The position numbers are program-made. From contig JAUIJE010000002.1 in assembly GCA_030431455.1 (NCBI GenBank), forward strand, positions 1,294 to 65,293: DNA of 64,000 nt, read 5' to 3'. Of this stretch, positions 9,001 to 18,000 are shown piece by piece (position 1 is the first letter of the stretch; every line of letters begins with the position of its first letter). The stretch comes from a bacterium (GTDB lineage: Bacteria; Myxococcota; UBA727; JAUIJE01).

Positions 9001-12000
9001 CCGACCACAAAGTTTTGGTTGCTGCTGTCTCCGGTGAACGCCACCACCCGCCGGAGGTTGGAGCCGCCGACCTGCACGGTGCTCAACCAAAGATCAAACG
9101 TCACTGCATCACTGGCGGTGCAGGCCTCCGCGAGCCGGGTCGCGGCCGGCGCGGTGAGCACAGTGGGGTCGTTGATGCGCAGGGCCTCGGCCTCCCAGGT
9201 CACCTGGTCGGGGTCGGCGATGGTCAAATCCAACGGGGGGTCTACCCCGGCCTGGTCGAGCACGGTGGCTCCGCTGCCCTCGTTGAACCGCCACACCACC
9301 TCGGCCCCGGGGACCGCCACCGGCGGCCCCGCGTCGATGCCTGCGGCGTCGAGCGCGCCCCCATCCCGCGGGCCGGCGTCGAGCGCGCCCCCGGCATCGA
9401 CGCCCGCGTCCCATCCCAACACCCCCGCGTCCCCATCCCCATCCCCATCCCCATCGCCATCCCCATCGCCGTCTCCGTCTCCATCCCCATCGCCGTCGCC
9501 GTCTCCATCCCCATCGCCGTCTCCATCCCCATCGCCGTCGCCGTCCCCATCTCCGTCTCCGTCGCCATCCCCATCGCCATCCCCGTCGCCGTCACCATCC
9601 CCGTCGCCGGCCTGGCAGTGGCCGTCGACGCACCGTTGCCCGACGGGACAGGCGCCGTCGCCGTCGCACTCGACGTGCAAAGAGGGCAGCACCGGGGGAC
9701 ACCCGGCCAACCAGAGCAACAACCCCATGACGACCCACGCGCGGCCCATGTCCGAAGTGTACGGGCGGACCCGCGCCGCGTCGACAAACCCGCCCGCGGT
9801 TTGGCCCGCCGCCCCGCGTGCTAAGCCTGGCCGGTGCCTCCCCCCGTCAACGTCTATGTGGGGTCCCCCGAAGCGGAGGACGCCCTGGTGCAAGAGCTGA
9901 CCACCAAGCGCCGCCACCCCCGGCCGGTGGCGCCCGGGTGCGTGACCCTGTCCGCCCAGCTGCAGACCGATCCGGTGTTCGCCCGCCACGTGCTCGCCGA
10001 CGCCCAACGCATCGAGGGCCGCGGCCGCGACGACCTCGCCCAGGCCCTGTTTGCCCAACTCGGCGAACACGAAGACGCCGTCCTCGCCGGCGCCACCCGC
10101 TTGGCGGTGTTTTCGCCCCCAGCGGCCCGGCCCCCGCGGGGCCAAAAGCCCCGCTCTCCCCTGTTGGGTTCGGCCCGGGACCTCGCCGCCGTGCTCGAAC
10201 AAAAACGCGCCGGCCGCGCCCGGAAGCGGGCCACCGACCCCGCCCCCCCCGACGGCAGCCGCATCGATGTGTTGTTGGTGGCCGAGGGGGCCGCGTATGT
10301 CACTGCACCGTTCACCCCCGACCCCGATCCGATGCTGGCGTGGCCGTCGGCGTTCCCCGGCGGGCACGCCGAGGTCGCCGACCTGCCCGCGCCCTCGAGC
10401 GCCTACCGCAAGCTTGTCGAAGCCTTGCGCTGGCTCGGCGATCCCCTGCGGCCGGGGGACCGGGCGGTCGACCTCGGCGGGGCCCCCGGCGGCTGGTCCT
10501 ATGTCCTGCTCGAACACGGCGCGCGCGTGGTGGCCTACGACCGCGGCGACATGGATCCGGGTCTGCTCGCCCGGCCCGGATTCGAACACCGGCGCAAGGA
10601 CGCGTTCGTCCACGCGGACTTCACCGACGTCGACGTGGTGGTGTGCGACATCATCGACGAACCCAAGCGCATTGTGTCGTTGCTGAAAAAGGCGTTGCCG
10701 GCCGCGCCGCGGGTGGTGGTGTTCACCATCAAGCTCAAGGCGCCCCTCGAGGCGGCCAAGGTCCGGGCGATCAAGGACGCGTTGGCCGGCGATCATGCGT
10801 ACCAACTCCGGGTCAAACACCTGGTGCACAACAAAACCGAAGTCACGGTGATGATGCGCCGGCGCTGATGGTCATCGGTCACACGCTTTCGTCCGGCCGC
10901 CGGGCTTCGTACGTTCCCGCACTGTTGCCTACATCTATGGCCTGAGGCCGTGAGGAGTCTGTCGTGCTCGCTCGTGTATTTGTCTTGTTCGCTCTGTTGC
11001 TGGCCGCGCCCGCGGTGCTCACTGGTTGCCCGGATGGCTCGCCCGGTGACGGAGACGGCGACGGAGACGGAGATGGGGACGGCGACGGAGATGGCGACGG
11101 AGACGGGGATGGAGATGGAGACGGCGACGGCGACGGAGACGGCGACGGAGACGGGGATGGCGACGGAGACGGCGATGGGGACGGAGATGGGGATGGCGAC
11201 GGAGACGGCGACGGAGATGGCGACGGGGACGGAGATGGCGATGGGGATGGGGATGGGGATGGGGATGGAGACGGAGACGGCGACGGGGACGGAGATGGCG
11301 ATGGGGACGGCGACGGCGATGGAGATGGAGATGGCGATGGCGACGGAGACGGAGACGGCGACGGAGATGGAGACGGCGACGGCGACGGAGACGGAGATGG
11401 AGACGGAGATGGCGATGGGGACGGAGACGGCGACTACATGCCCCCCGTCGGGCCCTATGTGTTGGTGTCGCCCCAGGCCGCGGACCAAGCCGGCGAGTCC
11501 GACACTGCCAATGTCACTGGACCGTTCGTGGTCCAGATCCGGGTCGGCCACGTGTCCGGCCTGACCGCGATGGGCTTTGGGGTGGGGTGGGACCCGGCGG
11601 TGCTCACCTTGACCGACCGCGAACGGGTCGACACTTGGCTGTCGTCCGGCGGCGGCAGCGTGCTCCCCCTGGTGGACATGCTCGATGCCGGCAACGGCAC
11701 GCTGGAGGTCGGCTTTGGCATCGCCGGGGGCGCGGCCAGCACCACCGCGAGCGAGAGCGTGTACCTGCTGACGTTCGATTTTGTGGGGGGCCCGGCGACC
11801 ACGGTGGTCGACCTCGATCTGTCCGCGGGCAACAGCGGCCTGCTCGATGCCAACGGCGCGATCGCCGGCGTGACCGAGCTCGATCTCACCGTGAACCCGT
11901 AGCGGCCCATGCGCGCCGCGGCTTTTGACTCGGCGCGCGCGGCATAGCCGACGAAGACGTCGCTTGCGCGCGGCGTTCACGCGGTTTTTTGATTCGGCGG

Positions 12001-15000: not shown

Positions 15001-18000
15001 AACGTCGACTATGACCCGTTGGTGACCCCCACCGGGGGCCGGTTCTTTGACCTCACCGCGTCGTTCGCCATCGTGCTCGACGATTTGTCGGCGGAGATCA
15101 TCAACCGCTACCTCGTGCGTTGCGACACCCCCAACCCCGCGCGGGACAACACCTGGCGCGACGTGAACGTGGAAGTCGACGCCGGCGCCGGCCTCGGCGG
15201 CGAAGACACCGGCACCTACTTCATCGAAGGCGGCGCGTTGCGCATCGATCCCATCCACAAGGTCGCCGACGTGGGCAGCACCTTCACCGTGGACGTGGTC
15301 GCGGACTCCGTGTCCGACCTGCAAAACGTGCACTTGGTGCTCGACTTCGATGAGAGCTACCTCGACTTCGTCGACGCGGTGCCCGGCGAGCTCCTCGGGC
15401 GCGACAGCAGCACCGGCCCCGTGCCGTCGCCGCTGGTGCTCCTCGGGGTGGGCCACGATCCCGCGACGGGCCGCATCGAGCTCGACGTCGCCCGCCAGGT
15501 GTCCGAAGGCACCGACGGCACCGGCGTGGTCGCGCAGCTGACCTTCACCATGACCGCCCTGCCCCCCGACGACCTCGACGCGAGCGGGGTGGAAGACCCC
15601 AACCAAGCCGACGACCTCACGTTCGTGCTCGGCCAAGGCGGGGTCTACCTCGAGAACGATTCGTTCGACGTCATCAGCGTGACCGCGGTGCAGAACGGGG
15701 ACATCGACGGCAACGCCACGTTCCTGCTCGGCGACTTCGACACCGATGGCGACATCGACCTGTTCGACTTCAACATCCTGGTCCAGAACTGGGGCAGCAC
15801 CACCGCGGATCTGCTCACCGGTGACATCGGCCCCGCGTCGGGCGTCGAGCCGGCCCTGAATCCGGCCCCGGATGGAATCGTCAACTACCACGACTTGTTT
15901 GTCTTCACGCGCATGTACAACTGGTACCGAGCCCAGTGACATGTGCGGGCGCCGCCTCACCGGCGGCGCCACCGCGGGGGACGTCGGTGACGCGTCCCCC
16001 GCAAAAAGTGGCCAGGGCGTCTTTTACGCAGGAGACGTCCCGACCTGAACGGGGTTCCCGACTGATTCCCGTTCGAACCCTGAGGCGTTCCGCGCAGAAC
16101 GCGCTTCAGGACCAGACGCGAGGTCTCTGCCCCTCGCACGAACAGCGGGCGGCGCTCCTTCGGGGGCGCCGCTTTTTTTTCGAAGGGGGAGTTCCTCCCC
16201 CCTCGGACCTCACGACTCGCAAGCTCGTCGATATCGGCTGGCCATTCCGAAGGAATGGCTTAAGCAACGCAAAGCGTTGCCACCTCACCCCCGAGTCGTG
16301 GCCATTCCGAAGGAATGGCTTCAGCAACGCGACAGCGTTGCCGCGCTCCAAGGGCCTTTGGCCCGTCTCGCCGGGTCGTATGCGTACGCATACGACGAGC
16401 TTGGGCTGGGGATATGTCGACGTCTCCTGCGAGGCTCGCACGCGGTGCGTACGAGGCAAGCCTGTCGGAATCAGTGGGGTGCGTTGGGGCGGGGCTCAGC
16501 GTTTCTGGGCGAGGAGCACCCAGGCGAGCGGCTCGACCTGGTGGAACGACAGGTCAAATGTGGAGAGCCGCAGCGCGTTGATCGAAAAATGCCGCTCGAG
16601 GGCTTCGGTGATGTCGCGGGCGGAGCGGCGGGGCGGGCCAAAATCGCGCGGCGCGCCCTCGGTGCTGCCGATGAGGCTGAGCCAGAGGCCGCCGGGCACG
16701 AGCTGGTCGGCGAGGCGCGCGGCGAAGCGGGCGCGGTCGGTGGGGTGATCAAAACAATGAAAACACCCGCGGTCGAACGCCACATCATACGGTCCGGTGG
16801 GCGGCAGCTCGTGCAGGAAGTCGACGGTGGCGGCACGAATGGTGACGCCCGCGGACGCCGCCCGGTGTTGGGCGCGCTCGACGGCCAGCGGCGCCAGGTC
16901 GACGGCGGCGACGTCGAACCCGCGCTCGGCCAGCCACACCGCGTTGGTGCCGGTGCCGCACCCGATCTCCAGCAGGCGCCCGGGGCTCAGCAGGCCCCCG
17001 TCGACGTGGGCCTGCAGGTGCGGGTCGACCACCCCGGTGTCCCAGGGCAGGTCGTTGGCTTCGTAGTTGTCGTTCCACGCGCGCTGGCTGGCCTGGGTCA
17101 TGGCGTCTCCTCGTCGGGGATGTGCCCACCATAGGGTCGTCCGGGGTGGCGCTCAAGCCGACTGGACGACCGCGCCCGGGGCGCCTAGATCGGGACCCCC
17201 GGAGGAACCATGTCGCTGCCCATCGCCCCCCGCGTGCTCTTGTGTCTCGGCCTTCTCGCCGCCGCGGCCTGTGGTTCGCTGCCCGAGGACGAGCCCGCGC
17301 CCACCCCCTACGACGGCGACGGGCCGGATGCCCCGGCGCTTTCCAGTGACTTTGGCTGCGTGGCCGACTACCGCCGGGTGGGGGGCTTGTACTTGAAAAA
17401 CGTGCTCGGCCTGACCGAGCAGGCGGTGGCGGTGGCCGAGTCCGACGGCGATTGGCACTTCCCGGTGGGCACCATCATCCAGGGCCAGCCCAACGAGGCG
17501 ATGCTCAAGCGCGGCCCCGGCTTTTCCCCCGAGACCGGCGACTGGGAGTACATCACCCTCGACAACGACGGGACGCGCACCGTGATCACCGCCCGCGGCA
17601 CCACCGACGTTCAGGGGGTGGGCCAGACCTGCGCGGCGTGCCACGCGCCCGCCGGTGACCAATGGGACTACATTTGTCAGGACGATCACGGGTGCGAGCC
17701 GATCCCCGCCTCGCCGGTGCTGTTCGAGACGTTGCGCAGCAGCGACGCCCGCTGCGCACAATAGGACCCTCAGAAATCTGAGGCTGTCTCAGCCGCGGTT
17801 GGCGCTGGCGTTGCCGGTGCGCGCTTTGTACTGGTGTGCCATGCGCACGATTCCGTTTTTGCTGTTGGGTTTGGGTTTGGTGACGTCGCTCGCGGCGTGC
17901 GGGAGCTGCGAGCCGGACCCCGTCGGCGATGGCGACGGCGACGGCGACGGCGATGGGGACGGCGATGGGGATGGCGATGGGGACGGCGACAATACATGTA

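Follow-up and report, generated by a model that had tools for sequence, protein, structure and literature searches.

Cohesin-fold lipoproteins encoded upstream of a VWA/cohesin/dockerin-like protein: a conserved gene pairing in Myxococcota and in bacteria with type IX secretion

Background

Does a bacterium of the phylum Myxococcota (lineage UBA727; JAUIJE01) hold proteins on its envelope by means of cohesin and dockerin modules and, if so, does the arrangement belong to a cellulosome? The question is raised by three genes, here termed A, B and C, which lie on one strand within a window of 64,000 nucleotides (GenBank assembly GCA_030431455.1, contig JAUIJE010000002.1, positions 1,294 to 65,293; GC content about 69%). 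The window is the whole stretch of DNA that was analysed, and its own numbering is used throughout. An initial annotation, made from the sequence alone, had described A as a lipoprotein that ends in a cohesin-like domain and C as a large secreted protein bearing a VWA domain, an HhH module, its own cohesin and a duplicated, dockerin-like calcium-binding segment; together they were suggested to form a small scaffoldin-like display system. The open reading frames (ORFs) of the three genes are found exactly where that annotation placed them:

10964-11902 (+): gene A, lipoprotein of 312 aa (ORF and start context)
12371-12862 (+): gene B, lipoprotein of 163 aa with a B-type cohesin-fold domain (ORF and lipobox VAGC)
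12877-15939 (+): gene C, Sec-secreted multidomain protein of 1020 aa (ORF and signal sequence)

The present analysis reveals that the genes belong to a cassette that recurs in other bacteria. The reading that we favour, and to which we assign an even chance, is that the cassette is a conserved cell-envelope attachment system of the cohesin-dockerin type and not a cellulosome, in which the C-terminal tail of protein C would sit on a lipoprotein cohesin and thereby tether its payload. The cassette has probably not been described before, and is probably unrelated to cellulose breakdown.

Results and discussion

Occurrence of the gene pairing in other bacteria

Full-length homologs of protein C are rare. 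Among 5.8 billion clusters, only four were found (50-66% identity), and these derive from metagenome-assembled genomes labelled Myxococcales, Myxococcota or Deltaproteobacteria. In five orthologous Myxococcota loci, a gene for an A-type and/or a B-type cohesin lipoprotein is followed by C, while the flanking genes differ from locus to locus. A-type orthologs occur at loci L003 (two copies), L005, L007 and L009, and B-type genes are located directly 5' of the C ortholog at L003, L005, L007, L008, L009 and L073. The short distance between B and C is retained at the orthologous loci (2-25 nt).

A scan of metagenomes with the dockerin-like tail of C yielded 20 loci. In most of them the module is 50-61% identical to that of C and is embedded in a protein of 1100-2400 residues, which ends in a C-terminal sorting domain of the type IX secretion system (T9SS). 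All four of the T9SS-type proteins that were scanned with Pfam display the order VWA, cohesin (up to 47.7 bits) and tail. Furthermore, a profile built from the cohesin domains of A and B detects a cohesin lipoprotein directly upstream at every T9SS-type locus in which the upstream DNA is visible (L061, L062, L064 and L067). The reverse approach, which is independent of the tail, started from three proteins of an exhaustive cohesin-profile search (P0021, P0038 and P0058). Each of them is encoded directly upstream of a protein with VWA and cohesin modules; the neighbours of P0021 and P0038 carry the tail, and the neighbour of P0058 runs off the locus before the position of the tail is reached.

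Over the Myxococcota and the bacteria with type IX secretion combined, a cohesin lipoprotein is thus located directly upstream of a VWA/cohesin/dockerin-like protein at each of the 12 distinct loci in which both genes can be seen. Since the cohesin profile retrieves only 48 cluster representatives (E<1e-3) among 1.84 billion, the likelihood that two such rare families are adjacent by chance is negligible. The lineages concerned range from 44 to 69% in GC content and use different secretion routes. As judged by sequence comparison, the cassette is conserved in more than one lineage, at least two of which are very different from each other, and is not a local curiosity. The functional link between lipoprotein and protein C, which the initial annotation had proposed from a single locus, is therefore better supported than its author could have known.

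The T9SS-type loci share a third, conserved gene, located 5' of that for the cohesin lipoprotein. Its product is about 290 aa long, with an SH3_3 domain between a signal peptide and a hydrophobic helix at the C-terminus. The gene has no counterpart in the window, and was located as follows:

L071, 7043-7915: SH3_3 gene
L067, 81-1016: SH3_3 gene
L064, 1067-1999: SH3_3 gene
L074, 4123-4848 and 5030-5947: SH3_3 genes
L061, 3-215: SH3_3 gene

The cohesin-fold lipoproteins A and B

Protein A is composed of a signal sequence with the lipobox L-T-G-C (Cys22; ...AVLTGC), a run of 65 GD dipeptides and a C-terminal domain of 155 aa. In protein B, the lipobox V-A-G-C (Cys17; ...ALVAGC) is followed by a short linker and by a domain some 135 residues long (residues 30-163). 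The parts of A that follow the signal sequence are:

11045-11434 (+): (GD)65 linker of A, 130 residues (translation)
11435-11899 (+): A-type cohesin-fold domain of A, residues 158-312 (predicted fold)

Both lipoboxes, read by eye from the sequence, fit the pattern [LVI][ASTVI][GAS]C, by which A and B are classed as bacterial lipoproteins; the lipobox cysteines are also present in the orthologs and in the neighbours of the T9SS-type proteins. Protein B had been listed in the initial annotation as a small lipoprotein, which it is, but its relationship to A had been missed. The domains of the two proteins align over their full length with 24-30% identity, which identifies B as a cohesin paralog of A, and a joint A/B profile scores B at E 3e-43.

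Because searches of the Protein Data Bank (PDB) with sequence profiles of the A/B family, and likewise of the cohesin inside C, returned nothing useful, a comparison of folds was needed. The AlphaFold2 (AF2) model of the A domain, calculated from an alignment of eight sequences, has a pLDDT of 91.7 and a pTM of 0.88, and its superposition on solved cohesin modules reveals a cohesin-type beta-sandwich in the predicted structure. Among the 46 proteins gathered with the A/B family profile, 14 match the Pfam Cohesin family (PF00963) at E<0.01. In view of the confident model of A, the paralogy of A and B and the relatives that reach Pfam Cohesin, A and B are divergent cohesins. Matches of A to Pfam TrAA12 and to the NCBIfam models SdrC, SdrD and ClfA were rejected as low-complexity artefacts of the GD run; an identical TrAA12 match is given by two unrelated GD lipoproteins.

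The acidic tether of A to which the initial annotation drew attention is indeed present, in the form of the 130-residue linker, but it is a trait shared with other proteins. GD runs follow closely on the signal peptide or lipobox in no fewer than seven lipoproteins or secreted proteins encoded by the window, the longest being that of A. Acidic GD linkers are therefore a habit of the genome as a whole and not a peculiarity of the cohesin lipoprotein. In the orthologs of A the composition of the linker varies, with GE in L007 and L009 and DAGxGP in L003. The GD runs of the window, including that of A, are:

9429-9608 (-): GD run
11045-11434 (+): GD run of A
17925-17990 (+): GD run
25519-25632 (+): GD run
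38636-38938 (-): GD run
52243-52344 (-): GD run
60328-60465 (-): GD run

The conserved C-terminal block of protein C

Protein C begins with a Sec-type signal that ends in AAA/QE. This is followed, in order, by an uncharacterised N-domain, an immunoglobulin (Ig)-like domain, an HhH module, a second Ig-like domain, the VWA domain, the cohesin and the dockerin-like tail. The modules of the C-terminal half are distributed as follows:

14287-15930 (+): supermodule of about 550 aa, residues 471-1018, comprising a beta-rich (Ig-like) domain, VWA, cohesin and dockerin-like tail (collinear alignment)
14587-15156 (+): VWA domain (Pfam)
15223-15696 (+): cohesin of C, residues ~783-940 (PF00963)
15709-15930 (+): dockerin-like tail, residues ~945-1018 (dockerin-type profiles, below cutoff)

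Residues 471-1018 of C are collinear with residues 572-1111 of the T9SS-type protein of L064 (34% identity, E 7e-80), and the same domain order is seen in the proteins of L054, L061, L063 and L064. The collinear alignment indicates that the stretch from the beta-rich domain through VWA and cohesin to the dockerin-like tail, about 550 residues long, is passed on as a single block. What precedes it is wholly different: BNR/sortilin, PKD and CarboxypepD_reg domains occupy this region in the T9SS-type proteins, as opposed to the N-domain and HhH module of C. A variable N-terminus mounted on a constant C-terminal block is the appearance that would be expected of a display or anchoring module.

The VWA domain and the internal cohesin of C, both predicted in the initial annotation, exceed the respective Pfam cutoffs. 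For the VWA domain, the scores are 32.2 bits with PF00092 (cutoff 23.8) and 33.6 bits with PF25106 (cutoff 27). Its motif resembles a metal ion-dependent adhesion site (MIDAS), with residues D579-x-T581-x-S583 and D676 invariant in five orthologs; in comparison with the usual DxSxS, the motif reads DxTxS, Thr replacing the first Ser, and the position of the middle Thr is occupied by E-N. The cohesin scores 27.9 bits with PF00963 (E 3e-6, gathering threshold 24.1) when residues 781-941 are excised, and is not listed when the whole of C is scanned. PF00963 was also found in the C ortholog P0002, and the homologous modules of L064 and L054 score 47.7 and 36.7 bits, respectively.

The calcium-binding segment quoted in the initial annotation, GDIDGNATFLLGDFDTDGDIDLFDFNILVQNWG, corresponds to residues 941-973 of C, as claimed. 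No other site in the 64-kb window, read in all six frames, fits a regular expression for the dockerin/EF-hand loop. The first repeat of the tail is canonical, with the loop D-F-D-T-D-G-D-I-D-L-F-D and its helix (DFDTDGDIDLFDFNILV). The second repeat, GDIGPA...PDGIVNYHDLFVFTRMYNW, keeps the pattern D-G-x-V-N-x-x-D and the helix. The alignment with the model dockerin_GC (NF041540) spans the entire tail (model positions 4-63 of 67), and this model matches all 15 modules of the family (best E 2e-7), while Dockerin_1 (PF00404) matches 11 of the 15 related modules (best E 6e-4). When a profile of the 15 tail sequences was compared with the PDB (177,635 distinct sequences), the top eight hits were all dockerin chains (E 0.008-0.14); with a profile restricted to orthologs, the best single hit was the NagH dockerin (E 0.019). 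EF-hand proteins appear among the weak hits of these profiles, but dockerins head both lists. At the level of its own sequence the tail of C is only dockerin-like, and the evidence at the level of the family points to dockerins. A role of the tail as a C-terminal sorting signal was considered and rejected, since it is internal in the T9SS-type relatives and lacks a hydrophobic helix.

The attachment reading and its alternatives

Observation covers the folds and domains, the relationship of A and B as paralogs, the conservation of the supermodule and that of the gene adjacency. For the tail we infer a function as a dockerin, and the binding partners, calcium dependence, surface exposure and adhesive role in the following scheme are to be taken in the same conditional sense. 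The dockerin-like tail of C would dock on the cohesin of B and/or A, probably in a calcium-dependent manner, and C would thus be held non-covalently on the membrane, either near to it by the short linker of B or on the tether of about 130 residues provided by A. Surfaces for ligand binding or adhesion would then be supplied by the VWA site of C and by its N-terminal domains. In this scheme the last 550 residues are the constant part, and the N-terminal payload, in C the conserved N-domain, the Ig-like domain and the ComEA-like HhH module, would be specific to the lineage. A second docking site may be offered by the cohesin inside C, to which either a further copy of C or the tail of the same chain could bind.

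A number of points weigh against such an attachment system. Neither the A domain nor the B domain gives a match in a Pfam scan at E<=10, PF00963 included, such that the cohesin proposed for A in the initial annotation is borne out by its predicted fold and not by Pfam. The A/B profile matches the cohesin of C weakly (hhalign E 0.016, probability 2.8%). As for the duplicated calcium-binding segment that the same annotation described, the first repeat agrees with the description, but the second is divergent, having Ala at loop position 3 and 12 residues between the conserved GDIGPA and PDG, and both curated models score the tail below their cutoffs. For Dockerin_1 the score is 12.8-13.7 bits (E 0.07-0.14, cutoff 22.9), with the first repeat only being aligned, and for dockerin_GC it falls narrowly short at 26.7 bits (E 5.4e-6, curated cutoff 29). 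The AF2 model of residues 930-1020, based on five sequences, is unusable and gives no confident fold (pLDDT 36.5, pTM 0.20). In addition, a cohesin lies in cis beside the tail in every system and could be its true and only partner, and A and B may face the periplasm rather than the cell surface. Finally, the tail is internal in the T9SS-type proteins. Because type IX secretion would normally attach these proteins to the cell surface by itself, they would already be anchored, and anchoring cannot be the whole story in these relatives. The sub-threshold scores and failed model of the tail, the ever-present cis cohesin and the internal position of the tail in the T9SS-type relatives are the reasons why our confidence in the attachment reading lies midway between acceptance and rejection. 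The initial annotation had named two outcomes that would speak against its proposal, namely sub-threshold scores with both the cohesin and dockerin models, or unrelated folds; what was found is a cohesin in C that passes its model and a cohesin fold in A. By that standard the proposal is not refuted, and as a whole it is borne out in part.

The cis cohesin invites another explanation, according to which the tail binds the preceding cohesin of the same polypeptide, and the two form a closed structural unit that terminates the VWA block. Another task would then fall to the lipoprotein cohesins, which may, for example, serve as a chaperone, assist in export or bind C elsewhere, such as at the VWA site. 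In every family member examined, the cohesin and the tail are adjacent in cis and inherited as one block, and the internal tail of the T9SS-type proteins would fit such a unit. Moreover, the tail is far better conserved across lineages than the lipoprotein cohesins: the tail modules are 46-71% identical, compared to E-values of 1e-7 to 4e-16 for the T9SS-type lipoproteins against the A/B profile. Such a closed unit, however, leaves unexplained the stand-alone cohesin lipoprotein that is invariably encoded upstream (12 of 12 loci), and only about 10 residues connect the cis cohesin to the first calcium loop. We consider this explanation unlikely.

We are more doubtful still that there is no cohesin-dockerin interaction at all, such that the tail would be a generic EF-hand-like calcium-binding segment, the cohesins generic beta-sandwiches, and the linkage of the genes a result of some other shared role in the envelope. 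The sub-threshold dockerin scores, the failed AF2 model of the tail and the EF-hand proteins among the weak PDB hits are consistent with this explanation. Yet it is dockerins and not EF-hand proteins that lead both PDB lists, and dockerin_GC covers the whole tail in all 15 modules. In addition, a cohesin-dockerin pair would predict that the two folds occur side by side within one cassette in different lineages, as they do.

Least probable, in our estimation, is a head-to-tail polymer of C, each copy contributing one cohesin and one tail to a non-covalent surface fibre, in which a tail-less lipoprotein cohesin would capture the first subunit, end the chain and fix the fibre to the membrane: the presence at all loci of two or more cohesins for each tail in the cassette, the lipoproteins with a cohesin only and the retention by Myxococcota of two anchors with different tether lengths are compatible with it, but its basis is architecture alone and, since the A/B cohesins are very unlike the cis cohesin in sequence, a single tail would need to recognise both. 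If such a polymer were nevertheless formed, it would represent a pilus-like adhesin conserved from Myxococcota to T9SS bacteria, with the N-terminal domains as exchangeable payloads.

Comparison with known cohesin-dockerin systems

A cellulosome requires a scaffoldin with several cohesins and several carbohydrate-active enzymes that bear dockerins. No glycoside hydrolase or carbohydrate-binding module was detected in A, B, C or their neighbours, each protein of the cassette contains a single cohesin, and there is one dockerin-like site in 64 kb; the designation scaffoldin-like in the initial annotation is accordingly not retained.

The closest functional analogues of the proposed attachment system would be the single-cohesin anchors of cellulosomes, together with the non-cellulosomal cohesin-dockerin pairs known from Clostridium perfringens and from Archaeoglobus fulgidus. 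The best structural or sequence matches include members of either group. As in the cassette, the OlpA, OlpC and SdbA proteins of Clostridium thermocellum (PDB 3ul4, 4dh2 and 5k39) present a single cohesin anchored to the envelope, which in their case captures a dockerin-bearing partner. The anchor of A and B is a lipid on the lipobox Cys in a diderm, in contrast to SLH domains on a Gram-positive wall, and the partner is an adhesin-like VWA/HhH protein, as opposed to a glycoside hydrolase or a scaffoldin. Unlike those of the clostridial anchors, the cohesins of A and B fall below the Pfam threshold and their binding is putative. The NagH/NagJ toxin complexes of C. perfringens (2jnk/2ozn, 2o4e, 2w1n and 2vo8) and the A. 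fulgidus example (2xdh) resemble the cassette in that they employ cohesin and dockerin outside cellulose degradation. They are not, however, organized as an operon of a lipoprotein and a VWA protein, whereas in the cassette the dockerin-like module is always located beside a cohesin of the same chain.

Non-cellulosomal cohesins and dockerins are widespread and their roles are mostly unclear (PMC9012536); the same article cites Peer et al. 2009 for a survey of such pairs. Among them, the dockerin/cohesin proteins of anaerobic methanotrophic (ANME) archaea are similar to the cassette in combining one dockerin with one or more cohesins in non-cellulolytic organisms, and a role in fixing functional proteins to the outside of the cell has been proposed for them (PMC9012536). 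They belong to a different domain of life and occur in S-layer or ABC-binding-protein contexts, and a cassette of lipoprotein cohesin and VWA protein is not described for them. A further likeness is provided by the NF041540 family, termed "GC-type dockerin domain-anchored protein", which gives a whole-module alignment in all 15 tail modules. The tail in the window differs from this family in its score below the curated 29 bits, and the T9SS-type relatives differ in that the module is internal and not C-terminal. No paper on the NF041540 family, and no description of a cohesin lipoprotein encoded together with a VWA/cohesin/dockerin protein, was found in the literature searched, coverage of which was incomplete.

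Should the tail bind the lipoprotein cohesin, the cassette would represent a route by which diderm bacteria retain large adhesins at the envelope non-covalently, and would supply new orthogonal cohesin-dockerin pairs for protein engineering. In any event, the analysis offers a working annotation for two rare families now called hypothetical. The cassette is a compact and conserved operon, in which the binding hypothesis can easily be tested.

The N-terminal half of protein C

The modules that precede the conserved block of C are:

12946-13731 (+): N-terminal domain, residues ~24-285 (uncharacterised family)
13732-13971 (+): Ig-like domain of the CARDB/NPCBM_assoc type, residues ~286-365 (homology)
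14014-14271 (+): ComEA-like (HhH)2 module with a 9-residue acidic insert, residues ~380-465 (weak evidence)

The N-domain gives no match in Pfam, nor does a 14-sequence profile match any PDB sequence. Its family is characterized by the invariant motifs DTM[IV]G[AD]ND and DTAV[SA]MWW, and its relatives (L012-L050) originate from Bacillota, Chloroflexota, Acidobacteriota, Planctomycetota, Bacteroidota and archaea. It apparently represents an uncharacterised family of extracellular domains. In these relatives a CARDB/NPCBM_assoc Ig-like domain usually comes next, and a cohesin is often found after the N-domain as well, as in a 703-aa protein of Fuchsiella alkaliacetigena. The gene directly 5' of the latter (L012, 4621-5766) codes, as judged by translation only, for a protein in which about 250 residues rich in Glu/Asp link a membrane anchor to a TonB-C-like end, and is thus a further case of a long acidic tether that adjoins a cohesin-bearing protein.

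Residues ~286-365 of C are without a Pfam match of their own. The equivalent stretch of the relatives matches PF10633, PF07705 and PF01345, and by homology this part of C is a probable Ig-like domain of the CARDB/NPCBM_assoc type.

The HhH segment of C likewise has no Pfam match, and is 43-53% identical to four tandem repeats of P0006, a protein that carries PF12836 (HHH_3). A profile of the HhH family gave three PDB matches only, all of them weak (E 0.1-0.16), to the HhH regions of ComEA and Tex. P0006 itself (1033 aa, from an ENA metagenome) combines four tandem N-terminal HhH-like copies, with the acidic insert GPDGxxGTxDDD, and a domain of the uracil-DNA glycosylase superfamily (PF03167).

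Organization of the locus and neighbouring genes

Gene A starts with GTG, and AGGAG is located 7 nt 5' of the start. A gap of 468 nt separates A from B, whereas B and C are only 14 nt apart, the interval containing GGGAGA. Since B and C do not overlap, the translational coupling that the initial annotation assumed for this pair is not demonstrated. The strong intrinsic terminator that it placed at the end of the unit is present:

16147-16182 (+): intrinsic terminator, 208 nt 3' of C

It consists of a 12-bp stem with nine GC pairs (16147-16174), closed by a 4-nt loop and followed by T8. The genes that flank A, B and C are unrelated to them, and code for FtsJ-type and TPMT-type methyltransferases, a dehydrogenase and other lipoproteins. 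Neither an AAA ATPase nor a Bat gene occurs nearby, and a MoxR/Bat-type VWA system was therefore rejected.

The gap between A and B (11903-12370) contains a 30-nt direct repeat (11935-11964 and 12016-12045), the two copies of which are 97% identical, 81 nt apart and each preceded by a T-rich TTGAYTCGGCG motif. No further copy was found within the 64-kb window. The intergenic region has no match in Rfam, and its folding energy is the same as that of shuffled sequence (z 0.07).

Downstream of the terminator, positions 17210-17764 (+) code for a predicted lipoprotein of 184 aa. It lacks a match in Pfam and contains a CAACH motif, which may form a single haem c-binding site.

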